In this document: positions 9,260 to 64,000 of the stretch, piece by piece
Layout of the letters: every line of letters begins with the position of its first letter
Position numbering within the stretch: the first letter of the stretch is position 1
NCBI GenBank assembly: GCA_965248265.1
Contig: CBDFJF010000002.1
Location: 3,136,001 to 3,200,000, forward strand
Length of the DNA: 64,000 nucleotides
Source of the DNA: Candidatus Latescibacterota bacterium
GTDB taxonomy: Bacteria > Latescibacterota > UBA2968 > UBA8231
Direction of reading: 5' to 3'
Position numbers and translations under genes: made by a program
The notes under the pieces: generated by a model
What the model saw: only the letters and a program-made list of their open reading frames with translations
Database searches by the model: none
Told to the model about the DNA's origin: nothing

Positions 9260-9916
9260 ATGGCAACGGTAGACGTGTTGACGGCAGACGGAGGCAAGAA
9301 GGGCTCGCTGGAGCTTCCTTCGATCCTGTTCGAGGCGCGTGTGTCCGAACACGCCGTCCATGCCGCCGTGGTCGCCTTCGAGGCCAATCAGCGGCAGGGA
9401 AACGCCTCGGTGAAGGGTCGTTCGGAAGTCAATCGGTCGGGCCGCAAGCACCATCGGCAAAAGGGCTCAGGATTGGCACGTCGTGGGACGGTCACCACCA
9501 ATCTCTTGAGAGGGGGCGGGGTCGCGTTCGGTCATCCGAAACCTCGATCCTACCGCACTCACCTTACCAAAGGAATGAAACACCGAGCTCTGGTGTCGGC
9601 GCTTTCTTACAAAGGCAAGACCGAGCAGGTACGCGTGGTCGAAGACGTGGAATTCGAGAAGCCGAGCACGAAATCCTTCGCGGCGCTGTTGCAAGCCATC
9701 GGATTGGGTCGGGAAGAAAAGGTTCTGTTCGTGACGGCGACAAATGACCCGGTGTTGTTCAAGTCGTGCCGCAATTTGCCGGGGGTTGAGATGGCGACCG
9801 CCACGACGGTGAATACGTATGGTATTGTGGCCGCCGATGTCCTCGTGCTGACTCCGAAGTCAGTTGAAGCACTGGGAGTCGTGCACGGTGATTCCAGTGG
9901 GGGCGAGTCACAGTGA
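9260..9916 (+). CDS. rplD: 50S ribosomal protein L4
   Basis: [13 protein letters not shown]...[11 protein letters not shown]...RGGGVAFG; ATG at 9260 after GAGGAAG. Confidence 0.97.
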
Positions 9917-10200
9917 ATGATCTACGATCCGTTTTGCGGGCCCCGGTTGTTACGGAGAAGGCGACCATTCAACGCGACAAAGGCACCTACACCTTTCGTG
10001 TCGATCGCAGGGCCAATAAGATCCAGATTCGCCACGCCGTAGAGTCGATTTTCGATGTTCAGGTTGCTTCAGTACGCACGGTTACGGTGCCGCGTAAGCC
10101 GAAGCGACAAGGAGCGTTCCGCGGTGCCACTTCGGCCTGGAAGAAGGCCTATGTGACGTTACGCGCCGGGGATGCCATTGAACTCGTTGAGAGTGTGTGA
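9913..10200 (+). CDS. rplW: 50S ribosomal protein L23
   Basis: PVVTEKA...FRVDRRANK...WKKAYVTL. Confidence 0.98.
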   Translation: MNDLRSVLRAPVVTEKATIQRDKGTYTFRVDRRANKIQIRHAVESIFDVQVASVRTVTVPRKPKRQGAFRGATSAWKKAYVTLRAGDAIELVESV

Positions 10201-54439: not shown

Positions 54440-56572
54440 ATGGCATCTGGGGTGATGGGACCCGAGTGGAGTGGTGGACAACATTATTGGGCCTGGTTGT
54501 TGCCGGTATCGATCGTCGAACTCGAGGGTGTGGGGCCGCGCCGAGCGGCCACGCTGGGTCAGTGTGGCATCCAAACCGTCGGCCAGTTCCTGCTGCGGTT
54601 ACCTCGCAGGTACATCGATCGCAGCCGCGTCCTGCCGATTTGGGAGGCCCCGCTCGGAGAGGAAGTCACTCTCGTCGTCTCGGTGCTGGATTCGGGGCAG
54701 CAGTCGGGTGGGCGCCGGGGTTCCAGCCGCAATCGAGCCCCGACGCGGGCACGTGTGGGGGATCACTCAGGTGAGTTGGACTGTGTCTGGTTTCACGGAC
54801 ACTATCAGAGCATGAATGACGGTGACACCGTCGCCGTTAGTGGCAAGATCGAGAGGTACGGATCTCGTCTGCAGATCGTTCATCCGGAGATCGAGCCTGT
54901 TGGCGAAGGACGCGCGCGCAATGGGGGGGAGGATGGATCGAGTGCAGGCACCATTCATACCGGAACCATCGTTCCCGTGTATGGCTCGGGTGAGGAACTC
55001 AAGTCCGCCGGCCTGACGAGCCGCCGCTGGCGCTCCCTGGTACGCGCTGCACTGGATCGCTTCGGTCCGGACATCCAAGATCCACTGCCCTCTGAGGTGT
55101 GCGAAAGCATCGGTCTGCCGGGCCTGGGTCCGAGCCTGCAGGCCGTTCACGCACCGGCATCGCTTGAAGAGGCAGAGCTGGGGCGTCGCCGCTTGGCGTT
55201 CGACGAGCTCCTGGGCATGCAGTTGGAGTTGGCGCGTCGCAGGCAAGCTCGTCTGCGGGGGCGGGGCATACAGCACAAAGCCAGGTCGCTGGTGGCGCGG
55301 TTCGTCGCCTCGATGCCTTTTTCCCTTACTCTCGCACAGGAGCGGGTCAAGGCGGAGATCCTCGACGACATGGCCGCCCCAAGTCCGATGCGACGGCTGT
55401 TGCATGGGGAGGTCGGCTCGGGCAAAACGGTAGTAGCTCTGTGCGCGGCAATGGCTGCTGTGGAGAATGATTGCCAGGTCGCCCTGATGGTTCCGACAGA
55501 AGTGCTGGCAGAGCAACACTTCGCCACCATACAAGACATTCCTTCATTCGAGGAGATCTCGACTGTCCTTCTTCTTGGCGGCCAGGGGAGTAGAGCCCGC
55601 CGGCAGCTGTTGGCGGCAGTGCAGTCGGGCAGTGCTCGCGTCGTCGTCGGCACCCACGCGCTGTTCCAGAGTGATGTGCACTTTGAGCGCCTTGGTTTGA
55701 TTATCGTTGACGAGCAACACCGCTTTGGCGTAACGCAGCGTGATGCGCTGGGCTTGAAGGGCTCTGACGCTGACGTGCTGGTGATGACGGCGACGCCGAT
55801 ACCTCGGTCGCTGGCCCTGACCCTGTACGGCGATCTGGACATTTCGACCTTGGATGAGTTGCCCAGTGGGCGGTGCCCGGTGCGTACTGTGGTGCGTGGT
55901 TCCGCTCAGCGTCCCCAGATATTGGAGTTTGTGGCGCGCGAGTTGAAACAGGGACGTCAGGCCTACTTCGTCTATCCCATGATCGACGAGTCGGAAAACG
56001 CTGGTCTGCTCCTCACCTCTGCCAGCGCTGCATTCGAGGCTTTGAGCGCGGGACCGCTGGCCGAGTTCGATCTCAGGATCCTGCACGGGCGCATGCCATC
56101 GGTGGAAAAGTCGGAGGCCATGGAAGCCTTCAGCCGCGGAGAATGCCAGGCTCTAGTCTGTACCAGTGTCGTGGAGGTTGGGCTGGATGTCCCCGGGGCC
56201 ACGATCATGGTGGTCGAGAATGCCGACCGTTTTGGACTGGCTCAGTTACACCAGCTGCGCGGTCGCGTCGGACGGGGTACGGTAGACGTCCAGGCATACT
56301 GCATCCTGATCGCCGACCATCATCACCAAGACGACCTTGCCGCGCAGCGACTTCGGGTACTCTGCGAGACTTCCGACGGCTTCGAGATCGCACAGCAGGA
56401 TCTCGAGTTGCGCGGTCCGGGTGAACTGCACGGGACGCGGCAGTCCGGCATGCCGGATTTTCTCGTGGCGGGACCGGCGGACGAGGACCTTCTGCTTGTG
56501 GCTCGAGATCAGGCTGCCCAGATGTTGATTGCCGTGCCGGCCGAGACCGGAGGGGGGTATCGGAATGAGTGA
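54440..56572 (+). CDS. recG: ATP-dependent DNA helicase RecG
   Basis: PRRYID wedge domain, RLAFDE, GEVGSGKT, DEQHRFG, MTATPIPRSL, QLHQLRGRVGR and DLELRGPG. Confidence 0.97.
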   Translation: MASGVMGPEWSGGQHYWAWLLPVSIVELEGVGPRRAATLGQCGIQTVGQFLLRLPRRYIDRSRVLPIWEAPLGEEVTLVVSVLDSGQQSGGRRGSSRNRAPTRARVGDHSGELDCVWFHGHYQSMNDGDTVAVSGKIERYGSRLQIVHPEIEPVGEGRARNGGEDGSSAGTIHTGTIVPVYGSGEELKSAGLTSRRWRSLVRAALDRFGPDIQDPLPSEVCESIGLPGLGPSLQAVHAPASLEEAELGRRRLAFDELLGMQLELARRRQARLRGRGIQHKARSLVARFVASMPFSLTLAQERVKAEILDDMAAPSPMRRLLHGEVGSGKTVVALCAAMAAVENDCQVALMVPTEVLAEQHFATIQDIPSFEEISTVLLLGGQGSRARRQLLAAVQSGSARVVVGTHALFQSDVHFERLGLIIVDEQHRFGVTQRDALGLKGSDADVLVMTATPIPRSLALTLYGDLDISTLDELPSGRCPVRTVVRGSAQRPQILEFVARELKQGRQAYFVYPMIDESENAGLLLTSASAAFEALSAGPLAEFDLRILHGRMPSVEKSEAMEAFSRGECQALVCTSVVEVGLDVPGATIMVVENADRFGLAQLHQLRGRVGRGTVDVQAYCILIADHHHQDDLAAQRLRVLCETSDGFEIAQQDLELRGPGELHGTRQSGMPDFLVAGPADEDLLLVARDQAAQMLIAVPAETGGGYRNE

Positions 56573-59083: not shown

Positions 59084-59950
59084 ATGGTCATGAGAGTGAA
59101 GGCACTCGCCGTTGGCGTGCTCATAGTGCTGTTGGGACCCGCATCACTGACGGCCTGGTGGTGCGACGGCCACACGGTGCTTACCCAGGCGTCCTTTGTC
59201 GCGCTCCCCGAAGGCGTGCCCGCCTTCTTTCGTGCCGGTGCCGCTGAAGCCGGCCACTACGTGTGCGATCCAGACCTCTTCAAGAACAATCAGGTGCCCG
59301 AGATCTCGGCCGCGGAGTTGCCTGAGCATTATTTCGATATCGAGTTACTCGACGGTCATACGGTGCCGTCCCATCGAAACCAGTTGCTCTCCTTGTGCGA
59401 TAGTCTGGGGGTTGAGCCATCCAAGGTTGGGTACGCGCCGTACGCCACCACAGAGTGGACGCAACGCCTGACGATTGCCTTTGCTGAGCATCGTCGTTGG
59501 CCGGCGAACGAGGCCATCAAGGCCAAGTGCCTGGTGTATTCAGGAATCCTCGCACACTACGCCCAGGATTTGTGTCAACCGCTGCACGTCACCGTCCACT
59601 TCGACGGCCGCGCGGATGCACACGGCAAGGTGCCGCATACGGGTATCCACGAGAGTGTGGATTCACTCATCGAGCGTTTGGGCTTGAGCGATTCCGCGAT
59701 CGCGACCAATGTTTCCCCGACCTCCTTCGATGACATCCGAGCTGCCGTTCAGGAAGAATTGCGTCGATCTCATGCGCTCGTCGACGTGATATACGACCAT
59801 GAGCAGGAGATGCGAACAGCTTCGGGAGACCATGCGAAGTCGTTCGCCACTGAGCGCTCCGAGGCGGCCGCCCAATTCACGGCGTCGTTGCTTGTGAGTG
59901 CCTGGGAGTTGTCCGAAAGCGTCGAATTGCCGGGCTGGCTGCGTCGCTGA
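59084..59950 (+). CDS. Secreted S1/P1 nuclease or Zn-dependent phospholipase C fold protein
   Basis: Signal peptide, then W...GH, PD, HYFD, HYAQDLCQPLH and H...D Zn ligands. Confidence 0.8.
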   Translation: MVMRVKALAVGVLIVLLGPASLTAWWCDGHTVLTQASFVALPEGVPAFFRAGAAEAGHYVCDPDLFKNNQVPEISAAELPEHYFDIELLDGHTVPSHRNQLLSLCDSLGVEPSKVGYAPYATTEWTQRLTIAFAEHRRWPANEAIKAKCLVYSGILAHYAQDLCQPLHVTVHFDGRADAHGKVPHTGIHESVDSLIERLGLSDSAIATNVSPTSFDDIRAAVQEELRRSHALVDVIYDHEQEMRTASGDHAKSFATERSEAAAQFTASLLVSAWELSESVELPGWLRR

Positions 59951-59978
59951 TCGTCGACGAACGGTCGCGCCGGGGGCG

Positions 59979-60592
59979 CTACCGTTGGAAGAATTCCTGT
60001 AGTTGGACTCGATCGAGGGTGTTTGATGACGTCTTCTGGACGCAACCAGCCCTTGCGCGCGATGCCGACGCCCAGCCGGAGGTTGTCCAGGTCGCTCAGA
60101 CGATGGGCGTCCGTGTCAAGGGCGCCGGGAACGGGCAATGGATTCGAGCAGGCGTTGGCTGGTTTTTCCGCCGAAGCCGGGCAGGGCATCCAGCGCGCCG
60201 CTGCCGCAAGCATCCTCGAGTTCCGCGACGGAGGTGATTTGGAGGGCCTGGTGTATGGCCATGACTTTCTTGTGGCCCAGCCCCGGCAGGCGCAGCAGAT
60301 CCAGCAGGCCTTCGGGCACGACCTGTTTCAGCTCTTCGTAGGTCGTGGTGGTGCCACTGTCGATGAACTCCGCCACCAGTTCGGCGATGCCTTTGCCTAC
60401 GCCCTCGATCTCCGTCAGGGTCTCCTGTCGCGACAGTTCGACGACATCGACATCCTCCACCTCCTCGATCATGCGGGCGCCATTGGCCAGGGCTCTGATG
60501 CGGAATGCATTGTCGCCGTTGAGCTGCATGAGCTCGCTGAGGCGATGGAGAAAGCTGGCGACCTCCGTATTCGTGGGCGCTGGCGCGGACAT
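59979..60592 (-). pseudogene. polX: DNA polymerase X/PHP remnant (N-terminal HhH part plus PHP tail; centre deleted)
   Basis: N-terminus FRIRA...IEGVGKGIA...LPGLGHKK...LPGFGGKT stops at 60116; the next frame reads DTDAH...GVGIARKGWL...DVI. Confidence 0.8.
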
Positions 60593-61428
60593 TAGTAGAG
60601 GTCGGAGATCAGGTTGAGTAACGCATCCGAGAGCGTGGGGTTGCCAGCCACCAGTCCTCCGCGGATCAGGGGATCTGACTGGTTGTACAGGCGCTCACGA
60701 CCGTCCAGATCGACCATGTGTCCGCCCGCTTCACACACAAGCAAGTCGCCGGCACATACATCCCATTCGTTCTTAGGCTGCACACTGACATTGACGTCGC
60801 ACAAGCCAGCGCTGATCACGGCCAGTTTGTAGGCGACGCTGCCGACTTCGCGAACTTCGTGCAGGTGGGGGCGCAGGGGATCCACCTCTCCCCGCGCTGC
60901 TTCACTGCGGCTGACAGTCAGCGAGGCGGTATCCAGGCGTTGACAGTCCGTGCAAAAGACGCGCTTGCCATTGAGGAAGGTGCCGCCGCCGCTGACGGCG
61001 CTGAACAGCTCGTCGGTGACCGGATTGAACATGGCAGCCACGGTAGGGCGGCCGGATTCCACCAGGGCGATGGAAACAGCAAATTCTCCAATGTGAGAGA
61101 CGAATTCCTTGGTGCCATCCAGCGGGTCCACGATCCAAACAGCGTCCCTGTCGAGTCGCTCGGGTGAATCGACGGTCTCCTCCGAAAGCCAACCATAGTC
61201 CGGGTGCGGACGGCGCAACATCTCCTCAAGACACTGGTTGGCAGCCAGATCAGCACTGGTGAGCGGGTCGTACTCGAGGTCGCGCAAGGCAGGCTGTCCA
61301 CCCTGGGATTCTTTGCCTTCCTTGATGGATTTCTTGTTTTCGACTTCGTAGGCGGACTCATAGAACCTGAGTAGCTGGGAGCCTGCCTCACGAGCGGCTT
61401 CCATGGCGAGCGTCAATTCGGGTCTCAT
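60592..61428 (-). CDS. cysQ: CysQ/inositol monophosphatase family phosphatase
   Basis: PLTSAD, LSEE, WIVDPLDGTKEF, SRS, GS..KL and EWDVCAG. Confidence 0.9.
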   Translation of the reverse strand: MRPELTLAMEAAREAGSQLLRFYESAYEVENKKSIKEGKESQGGQPALRDLEYDPLTSADLAANQCLEEMLRRPHPDYGWLSEETVDSPERLDRDAVWIVDPLDGTKEFVSHIGEFAVSIALVESGRPTVAAMFNPVTDELFSAVSGGGTFLNGKRVFCTDCQRLDTASLTVSRSEAARGEVDPLRPHLHEVREVGSVAYKLAVISAGLCDVNVSVQPKNEWDVCAGDLLVCEAGGHMVDLDGRERLYNQSDPLIRGGLVAGNPTLSDALLNLISDLY

Positions 61429-61463
61429 GAGGTTGGAATATGGTGGGCCATTCACAGGTAGGC

Positions 61464-61490
61464 AAAAAAAAACCCCACATCCTTGTGGGG
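61464..61490 (-). terminator. Intrinsic terminator (minus strand) whose loop carries a CsrA consensus site
   Basis: Minus strand CCCCACA-agga-TGTGGGG followed by T9. Confidence 0.85.
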
Positions 61491-61545
61491 ATTAGCGAGA
61501 CGTCCCTGTCCGGCGGAACGACAGAGCAAGGCTCATCATTCCACC
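61464..61545 (-). ncRNA. Candidate sigma28-dependent, CsrA/RsmA-binding small RNA (~80 nt)
   Basis: Bounded by a sigma28-type promoter and a terminator; contains ACAGGGACGU, ACAAGGAUGU and two more GGA motifs. Confidence 0.5.
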
Positions 61546-61550
61546 CTGTA

Positions 61551-61577
61551 TTATCGGCTCCGTAATCGATTGCTTGA
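61551..61577 (-). promoter_or_regulatory. Sigma28 (FliA/SigD)-type promoter
   Basis: Minus strand TCAA-N15-GCCGATAA (exact -10 consensus). Confidence 0.7.
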
Positions 61578-61731
61578 GGAGATAGTCGCTGCGGAGCCTG
61601 ATCTTGACAATGCTTGACAATGCTCCCGTTATCAGTAACCTAGGCTGTGTTCCATGACACAGCGTAGAACGTCCCGCGAGCGTGCACAGCGTTGCCCTTT
61701 CGGTGCTCAACCCAAAATCAAATTGGATACC

Positions 61732-62364
61732 ATGTCTTCACGCCGCATCACAATCGCACTCGTATTCTCAGTCGCCATCGGATCAATCCCAAGCTCCTGG
61801 GCCGAAAACGAAGCCGCTGATCAACGCGTCGTCGACACCCTCATCAGACTCGACCGCGACGATCTGTGGGGGGAAGCCGTGATGAAACAGGGTGGGGTAC
61901 GTCCGATCAGAGTGGTATCCATAAAAGGCGACACCGTGGACGTGCGCGAAGTGATAGGGGCGCTCCAAGAGCGCCCCGCGACCTACGCGATCTCTGAGTT
62001 CCGGTCGCTCCGTGAGCTCGGTGAGCACAGGATCCCGATGCGACGGGCACCTTATCGATCAAGCCGTTCGATGGTCAGGGCGTTGGGTCTGGAGTTGGTG
62101 GTACCGGGCGGTGGGTATTTCTATGTCGGCGAGTCCCGCCAGGGCTTGGCCATGCTCGGTTTCTCGGCCCTGGCCGTGGCTACCGCCTTCACCACCGGTG
62201 AATCCGGTGTTGCGGGATGGGTGCCCATTGCCACCTGGTTCAAGATCGCTTCACTGGTTCATCTCGCCGATGAAGTGCAAGCCATGAATGCGGCTCACGC
62301 CACAGCTGCAACCACGTCGTCGTCATCGCCACCGCTCCTGTTGGGGCTCACGCACCGCTTTTAG
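61732..62364 (+). CDS. Hypothetical exported/membrane protein
   Basis: Signal peptide; L..VVPGGGYFYVG motif followed by hydrophobic helices; ends in F; duplicated TTGACAATGC upstream (61604, 61614). Confidence 0.7.
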   Translation: MSSRRITIALVFSVAIGSIPSSWAENEAADQRVVDTLIRLDRDDLWGEAVMKQGGVRPIRVVSIKGDTVDVREVIGALQERPATYAISEFRSLRELGEHRIPMRRAPYRSSRSMVRALGLELVVPGGGYFYVGESRQGLAMLGFSALAVATAFTTGESGVAGWVPIATWFKIASLVHLADEVQAMNAAHATAATTSSSSPPLLLGLTHRF

Positions 62365-62456: not shown

Positions 62457-64000
62457 CTAATCTGCCGTAGATCCAAAGGCATCCGCGAACAGGAAGAAGT
62501 CGTCGAAGTCGACGATCAGGCTGGCATCAAGGTCGAAGTCGGGGTCCCACCCAAGATTCTCGTCCGTAGTTCCGAAGGCATCCGCGAACAGGAAGAAGTC
62601 CTCGAGGTCGACCCGGCCGCTGCTGTCAAAGTCAGCCGGGAGCTCGGGTCCCGGAGGCTCCTCGCCGGGGGCCAGAACGAGTACCTCGACATTCTCTGAG
62701 TCGGCTCCGTCTTGCGCGTCCGTGGCGGTAAAGGCCAGGGAGGAGGCGCCCACGAATCCCGGGATGGGGTTGATGGTGAGGGTGCGTTCCTGGGCATTCA
62801 CGATGACGGACAACCCACTGCCCGCCAATACGTTCCAGCTGATCTGGCCGACGTCTTCGTCATCCGTTACCAGGGTGTCCAGATCCAACTGTGTGGGTGA
62901 ACCGGCCTCCAGGAACAATCGCGTTAGGTCGACAATTTGAGGCGGATCATCTATGTCCAGGATCAGCACGTCAATGGTATCTGCGACACTGGAGAGATCG
63001 TCGTTGACGGCGATGATGACGGTAAACGATCCTGAGCTGTCCGGTGCAGTCCAAAGCCGTAAAACTCCCGTTTCCTGGTTGAAGTCACTGATCAGGTCGG
63101 CCGACGGTGAAATGACGAATTCCAGGTCGCCGACGTCATCGTCCGAGTCCTCGACCAGGGCATGCAGGTCCAGTTCGAGGCTGTCGTCCTCAGAGATTGT
63201 CAGCGATTGCGGCAACGTAAGCACGGGTGAATCATTGACCGCGATAACCTCAATGGTGGCCGTGTCCTGGCTCTGAGCACCGAAGGCGTCCTCGGCGCTG
63301 ATGGTGAGACTGGCGTTGCCGGAAAAGTCAGCGTCCGGTACCAGGGTAATCTGTTCGCCATCGAAGGCGATCTGCAGGCGGTCACTGGTTACCTCGATGG
63401 TCAATTCTGTATCGTCGACATCGGTGACGAATGCACTCAGTGGCCTGATGGATGTTCCATCCTCGAACATCGTGAACGGCGTTATGGCGACGACCGGCGG
63501 GTCGTTCACGGAGCTTGAAGTGATCAGGTCCGAAGACACCGTCCCAAGATCACCCTCGTCGCCAATGGTTTCGTCGTCAGCCGTAAGGGAAAACGACTCC
63601 TCATCTACGGTCGGGAAGTAGGTCAGATTGGGGAAGGTGGCGACCGCGTTCACGGCCGTCGCCGTGTTGAACTGGAGGGTCCCTGGGGCGTTCGTCGTCA
63701 GTGTGATGGCGTCGTCGAAGTCCGTGTCGAGGAAATCCAGATCATCTCGGGCTTCGACGACTGGCGGAACGTCCAACGCGATGCCGCTGATGGATCCTGC
63801 CGGCTGCGTGGTGAAGGCCAGATGGGTGGCGACAACGTCGATCTCGAGCACTCCCATAGTATCGGAATTGGCCCTTACCATTCCTCTGCCGCCCGTGGAG
63901 GTCAGCAAATCACCGGTGGCAAATGATACCCAAATCGAGTCATGCTCCGTCGCCGTCGTTTCCACCAGCGCGGAGACCAGATAGTGCCGCTCGACCCCTG
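62457..64000 (-). CDS. Large surface protein, 3' part: Ig/cadherin-like (tandem-95 type) repeats with a C-terminal dockerin/EF-hand-like pair
   Basis: Repeated VNDPP/VNDSP/IDDPP...ED...D.DD...P..F.G units; C-terminal DFDSSGRVDLEDFFLFADAFG and DLDASLIVDFDDFFLFADAFG; appears open at the window edge. Confidence 0.85.
   Translation of the reverse strand, partial: GVERHYLVSALVETTATEHDSIWVSFATGDLLTSTGGRGMVRANSDTMGVLEIDVVATHLAFTTQPAGSISGIALDVPPVVEARDDLDFLDTDFDDAITLTTNAPGTLQFNTATAVNAVATFPNLTYFPTVDEESFSLTADDETIGDEGDLGTVSSDLITSSSVNDPPVVAITPFTMFEDGTSIRPLSAFVTDVDDTELTIEVTSDRLQIAFDGEQITLVPDADFSGNASLTISAEDAFGAQSQDTATIEVIAVNDSPVLTLPQSLTISEDDSLELDLHALVEDSDDDVGDLEFVISPSADLISDFNQETGVLRLWTAPDSSGSFTVIIAVNDDLSSVADTIDVLILDIDDPPQIVDLTRLFLEAGSPTQLDLDTLVTDDEDVGQISWNVLAGSGLSVIVNAQERTLTINPIPGFVGASSLAFTATDAQDGADSENVEVLVLAPGEEPPGPELPADFDSSGRVDLEDFFLFADAFGTTDENLGWDPDFDLDASLIVDFDDFFLFADAFGSTAD

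Follow-up and report, generated by a model that had tools for sequence, protein, structure and literature searches.

A conserved small RNA candidate with a sigma-28-type promoter and two CsrA-type hexaloops upstream of cysQ in Latescibacterota

What is transcribed from the ~300-base gap that separates a cysQ-like gene on the minus strand from its divergently oriented plus-strand neighbor in Latescibacterota? The question is raised by a stretch of 64,000 nucleotides from a Candidatus Latescibacterota bacterium (GCA_965248265.1, contig CBDFJF010000002.1, positions 3,136,001 to 3,200,000), which is here called the window. Within this gap, the minus strand at 61464-61577 carries a promoter-like sequence, two copies of a motif resembling the binding site of the RNA-binding protein CsrA and a terminator-like hairpin. 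An earlier note on this DNA, made from the sequence alone, had taken the element for a CsrA "sponge" under sigma-28 control, with an attenuator of cysQ-polX or a 15-codon peptide as alternatives. Comparison with related loci indicates that the element is very probably a real, conserved and independently transcribed small RNA (sRNA) gene of ~80 nucleotides (nt). The full model proposed below, in which this sRNA would act as a CsrA decoy under sigma-28 control, is given a probability of roughly 45%.

Read along the minus strand, the element begins with TCAAG (61573-61577), a -35-like sequence fitting the conserved pattern T-N-N-A-G, and continues with the -10 element GCCGATAA (61551-61558), which is of the sigma-28/FliA/SigD/WhiG type. 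By the geometry of sigma-28 promoters (PMC12784957), transcription would start 8 bases past the -10 element, near 61544-61542, yielding a predicted sRNA of ~79-81 nt (61464-61544) with its 3' end within a T-run. Its first part is predicted to form a 5' hairpin of 15 pairs with the base GGAA:UUCC (61512-61545), of which the sequence varies across species and the structure is kept. This is followed by site 1, a short hairpin GGAC-AGGGAC-GUCU (61498-61511) presenting GGA in a hexaloop, and by site 2, the stem-loop CCCCAC-AAGGAU-GUGGGG (61473-61490), which leads into a tail of nine T (61464-61472), the last two of them shared with the -35 hexamer of cysQ. The motif of site 1 is ACAGGGACGT (RNA ACAGGGACGU; 61509-61500) and that of site 2 is ACAAGGATGT (RNA ACAAGGAUGU; 61486-61477). 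With 7 pairs in its stem, 5 of them G-C, and T9 behind it, the second hairpin has the makeup of an intrinsic terminator, and as there is no minus-strand gene upstream for it to serve, it closes a short unit of its own. The letters on which the earlier note had built are all in place: TCAA (61577-61574) lies 15 bases from GCCGATAA (61558-61551), both matches to ACARGGAYGU are where it had put them, the second inside the terminator, and CCCCAC-AAGGAT-GTGGGG (61490-61473) runs into T9 (61472-61464). Its count of four GGA triplets is likewise correct; two of these lie in the loops of the conserved sites, one is paired in the 5' stem and one belongs to the stem of site 1.

For the 82-nt stretch 61545-61464, the predicted fold has -36.8 kcal/mol (z = -4.19; 0/200 shuffles as good) and consists of the 5' hairpin, a small hairpin with the six-base loop AGGGAC and the terminator. 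ACARGGAYGT occurs three times in the window against 0.39 expected, a number reached in 0/100 shuffles. Two of these copies are within the element, and the third, an exact ACAGGGACGT at 55948-55957 (plus strand) in the coding region of recG, is taken as a chance match. GCCGATAA is found in 3 copies against ~2 expected (calculated for uniform composition) and is singly not beyond chance, and neither is the terminator, of which the scan found a single site in 2 kb where 1.3 would be expected. The chance tests within the window alone are mixed, and it is the conservation in 13 related loci that we regard as decisive.

Relatives were gathered with the CysQ protein as the query, taking one genome per species, which gave 64 loci. 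The 18 closest (L001-L016, L023 and L025) are from metagenome-assembled genomes titled Latescibacterota, "Gemmatimonadetes" or uncultured bacterium, and the remaining 46 are from other phyla. All 18 share the gene order efflux - divergent gene - cysQ - polX, and their CysQ proteins are 48-65% identical to that of the window. At 13 of them (L001-L008, L011, L012, L015, L023 and L025) the same unit of promoter, GGA sites and terminator is present upstream of cysQ, on the same strand, which bears out the earlier proposal of a short free-standing transcription unit to be sought in related genomes. The unit is absent at cysQ in L009, L010, L013 and L014, four loci with the same gene order. Complete Latescibacterota chromosomes are the source of L005 (OZ244235.1), a carrier, and of L009, L010 and L013 (OZ242318.1, OZ244619.1 and OZ253462.1). 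In what follows, counts over 14 sequences refer to the window and the 13 carriers, and counts over 19 to the window and all 18 loci. Each of the 14 sequences has exactly one copy of the terminator motif, with GCCGATA 69-142 bases upstream of it in every case. A covariance model, R1, built from the 10 short forms of the sRNA, recovers one copy per carrier, 14 in all, at 34-98 bits, with the window copy at 72.6 bits. The additional matches of R1 have E values of 0.7-3.1 and comprise three antisense to the same terminators and one in L042, which is the only match among the 46 loci of other phyla (15.8 bits, E = 2.6).

Two further loci show what appear to be altered states of the region. In L016, a decayed copy of the sRNA at 9849-9949 reaches 23 bits with R1; its -10 element GCCGATAC is kept, site 1 is weakened to ACAGGAAU and the terminator loop is devoid of GGA, so that the copy is, judged by its sequence, a natural loss-of-site variant. 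When ~9880-9960 of L013 is set beside 9760-9840 of L006, the divergent promoter (GTCAAG) and CTGCCG are seen to be kept and to be followed directly by the cysQ promoter, an arrangement suggestive of a clean deletion of the sRNA cassette in L013 or of its insertion in the other loci.

Within the predicted transcript, conservation is strongest at the two GGA sites. Site 1, GACA-N-GGA-Y-GT, and site 2, CCCCAC-A-R-GGA-Y-GTGGGG with a T-rich tail, are each present in 14/14 sequences, and the stem of site 2 is invariant throughout. When the 10 short forms are aligned, with the four long forms of L001, L002, L004 and L025 omitted, both blocks stand out as invariant columns, in site 1 as GACA-GGA-GT. 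RNAalifold finds both GGA hairpins in these 10 sequences and no covariation that could be counted; since both hairpins are invariant, covariation says nothing for or against their pairing. The GGA of site 1 falls in a hairpin loop of the minimum-energy fold in 11 of the 14 sequences. The 5' hairpin shows a different pattern, with 11-17 pairs in 14/14 folds at a median pairwise identity of 57% for the segment and with z-scores of -2 or below against mononucleotide shuffles in 8/14. Its stem base GGAR:YUCC is found in 11/14 sequences, and the pairs above it switch type (CG, UA, AU, UG etc.); L001, L005 and L023 do not have this anchor and are excluded from the count of pair types. Because the MAFFT alignment of the 5' hairpin is too poor for a column-wise count, pairs were taken from the minimum-energy fold of each sequence, anchored on GGAR. 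All counted pairs are therefore canonical by construction, and the counts express structure kept despite sequence change rather than a statistical test of covariation. The long forms, of 147-162 nt (L001 9815-9967, L002 1267-1428, L004 9836-9982 and L025 7353-7507), have one or two additional hairpins inserted between their GGA sites; those of L002, L004 and L025 have a conserved hairpin GACGGGC...GCCCGU in common.

The promoter is conserved as well. GCCGATA is invariant in 14/14 sequences, and the window matches the sigma-28 -10 consensus GCCGATAA at 8/8 bases. The part of the -35 region that is truly conserved is T-N-N-A-G, whose T, A and G are kept in 14/14 and which lies 14 bases before the -10 element (15 in L001 and L005). 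This pattern includes the TCAA of the earlier note, whose assignment of the promoter to the sigma-28 type is supported. The composite of T-N-N-A-G, 14-15 bases and GCCGATA has 15 matches in 361,823 bp searched on both strands, of which 14 are the element described here, and the remaining one (L008 3582-3607) is at chance level (~2 expected, calculated). In the sigma-28 promoter of Pseudomonas aeruginosa fliC, TCTAAAG ends at -30 and GCCGATAA occupies -15 to -8, with 14 bases between them (PMC12784957), a spacing equal to that of the sRNA promoter, and "-35 TAAA; -10 GCCGATAA" has been called a well-established flagellar consensus (PMC8325347). Furthermore, the housekeeping promoters of the flanking genes are canonical and sigma-70-type, and the GCCGATAA promoter thus belongs to another class. 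Taken together, these sequence features make it fairly probable that the sRNA promoter is read by a sigma-28-family factor.

ACARGGAYGU fits all but one of the 28 sites (two in each of 14 sequences), and thus 27 of them; site 1 of L005, ACACGGACGU, does not conform. In both sites, GGA lies in an A-R-GGA-Y hexaloop closed by AC and GU pairs. This agrees with the consensus RUACARGGAUGU obtained for CsrA by SELEX (the systematic evolution of ligands through exponential enrichment), in which ACA and GGA are fully conserved and GGA lies in a hairpin loop in 51/55 ligands, 44 of these loops being of six bases with AC/GU pairing (PMC7652899, review by Pourciau et al.). The site motif matches the CsrA consensus at 10/10 core positions. 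A single CsrA dimer is reported to be able to span two sites separated by 10-63 nt, most favorably by more than 18 (PMC7652899), and the distance of 23-28 nt from GGA to GGA in the 10 short forms falls inside this range. The identical motif in two loops makes a dimeric protein a more likely partner than an antisense seed, and on these sequence grounds we put the case for a CsrA-family protein as the partner at about even odds. The earlier term "sponge" is an overstatement in any event, as only two sites are conserved, enough for a single dimer; two sites point to a one-dimer decoy or leader mimic and not to a CsrB-like sponge.

The model that we propose starts from a sigma-28-family alternative sigma factor that would read T-N-N-A-G, 14 bases and GCCGATAA. 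Sequence, folding and conservation all point to a transcript composed of the 5' hairpin and two A-R-GGA-Y hexaloop hairpins, the second being the intrinsic terminator. The two loops, 23-28 nt apart, would jointly occupy both RNA-binding faces of one CsrA-family dimer, so that firing of the promoter would titrate CsrA off its mRNA targets. In effect, the action of the sRNA would be that of a flagellin-mRNA leader with two hexaloops, detached from its flagellin gene. More tentatively, it is possible that the sRNA is the first CsrA-antagonizing RNA from a group other than the Gammaproteobacteria, a sigma-28-transcribed, free-standing mimic of a flagellin leader in Latescibacterota. If so, bursts of late flagellar transcription might release CsrA-repressed mRNAs at a rate of one dimer per RNA, with the RNA working beside FliW or replacing it. 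As for the flagellar setting, single-cell genomes of Latescibacteria are reported to encode most core flagellar genes (PMC4454575), and flagellar motility is also encoded in marine bins that group with Latescibacteria or PAUC34f (PMC5596340).

A number of observations weigh against this model. At the promoter, the -35 element has G/C at position 2 and A/G/C at position 3 in place of the AA of TAAAG, the window itself having TCAAG, and sigma-28-family factors are known to control non-flagellar genes too (PMC8325347). In the four long forms, the GGA triplets are 72-85 nt apart, beyond the linear limit of 63 nt, and this spacing exceeds the bridging range of CsrA unless the inserted hairpins bring the two sites together. 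The terminator stem, with 6-7 G+C-rich pairs, is longer and stronger than in typical SELEX ligands, which mostly have at most 4 stem pairs, and very stable stems may disfavor CsrA binding (PMC7652899). In addition, all 18 bases of the terminator hairpin are invariant, a degree of constraint beyond what recognition of its loop by a protein would account for. Searches with Pfam found no csrA, fliW, fliA or flagellin gene among 184 open reading frames (ORFs) of the window (52 + 132) or 261 ORFs of the 18 loci; such an absence in 362 kb says little, because it covers ~20 kb per genome at one locus each. What did turn up in these 445 ORFs is limited to FapA-family genes (L007, L014 and L023) plus, in L016, a FlgD_ig domain of the sorting type, which is unrelated. 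Lastly, the supplement on Latescibacteria single-cell genomes lists sigma-70/32, sigma-54 and sigma-24 and mentions neither sigma-28 nor CsrA, for genomes that are incomplete (PMC4454575).

Some of these observations would be accommodated by readings in which the RNA has another partner. Were it a trans-acting, base-pairing sRNA unrelated to CsrA, with the G-rich loops or the C-rich arm of the terminator as seeds, then the 18-base terminator hairpin and site 1 would be expected to be invariant in sequence and not just in structure, as they are, and it would be of no consequence that no CsrA gene is documented in the window and the 18 loci scanned. We nevertheless consider this rather unlikely, given that two hairpin loops carry one and the same 10-base motif, that this motif fits a protein's SELEX consensus in 27/28 cases, and that one of the two putative seeds would be located in the loop of the terminator. 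The two-loop architecture also suits a dimeric RNA-binding protein other than CsrA, for which the RNA might be a decoy or a scaffold, provided that this protein recognizes A-R-GGA-Y hexaloops. What speaks for such a protein is that no csrA came up in the DNA scanned here; CsrA is reported to be scarce in Bacteroidota, and its homologs in Krumholzibacteriota and Eisenbacteria are mostly predicted to be non-functional (PMC13443453), a study whose supplement, in the portion available, holds no entry for Latescibacterota, Latescibacteria or Krumholzibacteriota. The motif, however, equals the CsrA consensus at every one of its core positions, and another protein as the partner is accordingly judged unlikely. 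Indeed, we know of no protein family other than CsrA with specificity for A-R-GGA-Y hexaloops.

Other readings tie the element to its neighbors or to its DNA. A cis-acting leader, attenuator or riboswitch governing read-through into cysQ-polX would account for the fact that the element is always directly upstream of cysQ and on its strand (14/14), with the terminator ending 36 bases from the cysQ ATG in the window. It is rendered improbable by a sigma-70-type promoter of cysQ itself, past the terminator, in 11 of 19 sequences, three of them without the element, which makes cysQ independent of read-through, and by the four loci of the same gene order that are entirely devoid of the element. Moreover, no alternative anti-terminator pairing was seen by inspection, the conserved bases form two identical loops rather than a junction-type aptamer, and no Rfam family matches in the window or 14 related loci. 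The attenuator that the earlier note had kept as an option is disfavored on the same grounds. Very improbable is an operator at the DNA level, bound by a transcription factor that would control cysQ or the divergent gene: CCCCAC-6 bases-GTGGGG and GAC-6 bases-GTC are inverted repeats, the first adjoining the -35 hexamer of cysQ, but the best-conserved bases are the non-palindromic loops, and an RNA is indicated by the T-run, by the promoter upstream and by a 5' hairpin that conserves its structure. The 15-residue peptide MMSLALSFRRTGTSR does have its ORF in the window, as had been noted. Its ATG stands one base past the Shine-Dalgarno-like GGUGGA; 3/14 homologs have no ORF of at least 8 codons starting upstream of site 1, and among the remaining 11 the ORFs vary in start, frame, length and peptide alike. 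As no ORF is conserved across the 14 sequences, a coding function has been rejected, and its probability is next to nil.

The window contains rpoC, fusA, tuf, a ribosomal-protein operon, secY, rpoA, a Bat/MoxR cluster, recG and ssb. The downstream neighbor of the sRNA, which lies outside it, is the cysQ-like gene of the inositol-monophosphatase family (60592-61428, minus strand; PF00459, 1.8e-51). Its sigma-70-type promoter, TTGCCT, 17 bases and CATATT (61437-61465, minus strand), stops 8 bases short of the ATG at 61428. The corresponding pattern TTG-N3, 16-18 bases, [T/C]AT-N-[T/C][T/C] is found upstream of the cysQ ATG in the window, L003, L006-L010, L012, L013, L015 and L023, and hence at three of the four loci without the sRNA (L009, L010 and L013). 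The distance from its end to the ATG is 8-12 bases in the window, L003, L006, L007, L008, L012, L013 and L015. A Shine-Dalgarno sequence is not visible before cysQ, and the distance from promoter to ATG suggests that the cysQ mRNA is leaderless or near-leaderless. A Bacteroidetes-type promoter, TAnnTTT[GC], was also suspected upstream of cysQ and rejected, as none of its 12 matches in the window is tellingly placed before a gene start; the sigma-70-type reading is preferred.

On the other side of the gap, the divergent ORF (plus strand, 236 codons, likely start 61732) belongs to no Pfam family. Its sigma-70-type promoter consists of TTGACA, 16 bases and TAACCT (61614-61641, plus strand), and the pattern TTGAC-N, 16-18 bases, TA-N3-T is present in 15/19 sequences. 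In the window, a 10-base unit, TTGACAATGC, is tandemly duplicated at 61604-61623 (plus strand) and doubles the -35 hexamer TTGACA of this gene. Past cysQ, polX is shortened in the window to an N-terminal piece of 158 residues (HHH_8 and HHH_5; 60116-60592, minus strand), which is probably a gene remnant; the PolX proteins of the relatives have 564-628 residues, with thumb and PHP domains. The ORF next after this piece (59770-60213, minus strand) has no Pfam family. A cadherin/Big_9 repeat protein at 62457-63965 (minus strand) ends in two copies of an acidic motif resembling D-F-D-D-F-F-L-F-A-D-A-F-G, possibly a tail for sorting or calcium binding at the C terminus, and large NHL/Big_9 proteins recur among the related loci. 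The FapA-family ("flagellar assembly protein A") genes mentioned above, at L007 20178-20774, L014 13275-15431 and L023 10970-13108, are situated a few kb downstream of cysQ-polX and are of a family that is not flagella-specific. Genes for an HDOD response regulator and a sensor kinase are nearby in L007 and L023, and an H-NOX gene in L007.

CsrA is widespread, and the accounts consulted describe RNA antagonists for Gammaproteobacteria only; elsewhere FliW is thought to antagonize CsrA, and FliW and sRNA systems are reported to be anti-correlated (PMC4682653, PMC7652899 and PMC4894983). If the proposed model holds, a sigma-28-type sRNA with two consensus CsrA loops in a phylum from the FCB group (Fibrobacteres, Chlorobi and Bacteroidetes) would break this gammaproteobacteria-only picture, and would suggest that such a decoy can originate from a flagellin leader that has lost its gene. 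Natural controls are at hand in the L016 copy, whose terminator loop has no GGA, and in the four related loci without the RNA. Whichever its partner, the RNA adds a new, well-delimited family for an uncultivated phylum. Searches of Rfam and of the literature found no prior description of this RNA, which is in keeping with the earlier statement that none was known from this lineage.

Comparison with known RNA families places the sRNA near several of them and inside none. At the gathering score, Rfam gives no match in the window or the 14 related loci. A permissive scan of 61300-61800 returns seven weak matches, the best being anti-hemB with 17.7 bits against a gathering score of 49.5; these are taken as chance matches driven by the terminator. 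Among the models of the CsrB/RsmZ clan CL00106, the best is RsmV, which at 10.7 bits (E = 1) stays below its gathering score of 100. The members of this clan, CsrB/CsrC and RsmX/Y/Z/V/W, resemble the sRNA in combining GGA hairpin loops with an intrinsic terminator, and they sequester CsrA/RsmA (PMC7652899). However, Escherichia coli CsrB has 22 GGA sequences, whereas the Latescibacterota sRNA has 2 conserved sites, below the five or more that define a many-site RNA. Furthermore, CsrB/Rsm RNAs are driven by BarA-UvrY/GacA and are gammaproteobacterial (PMC4682653), whereas the sRNA has a sigma-28-type promoter and comes from an FCB-group phylum. The TwoAYGGAY motif (RF01731; also described in PMC2864571) likewise has two hairpins whose terminal loops hold a GGA-centered six-base motif, but its loops are A-Y-GGA-Y on a common basal stem and its copies, flanked by repeats, can number from tens to hundreds (bioRxiv 10.64898/2026.09.22.753630), while the sRNA has A-R-GGA-Y loops, no shared stem and a single copy per locus. 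In the permissive scan, RF01731 has no match up to E = 10.

E. coli also has sigma-28-dependent sRNAs that are transcribed with the late flagellar genes, and these, like the sigma-28-dependent sRNAs of Campylobacter jejuni, act by base pairing and are not known to be CsrA decoys. Those of C. jejuni share with the Latescibacterota sRNA that they are small RNAs transcribed along with late flagellar genes (PMC11187230), which for the latter is so far suggested by its promoter. The flagellin leaders of C. jejuni flaA and Bacillus subtilis hag, like the sRNA, have a sigma-28/SigD-type promoter and two adjacent GGA loops ~21-28 nt apart (PMC4894983 and PMC13443453), and leaders and sRNA alike are sized for one CsrA dimer. 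The flaA leader, whose two GGA hexaloops lie 21 nt from each other, is a target of CsrA repression and can also titrate the protein (PMC4894983). In the flagellin leaders, the second site is at the Shine-Dalgarno sequence of the flagellin gene, whereas in the sRNA it is the terminator loop, with T9 behind it. No ORF follows, and the next gene, cysQ, has its own promoter, so that the RNA is free-standing; it is a new family, and a new version of a known regulatory type.

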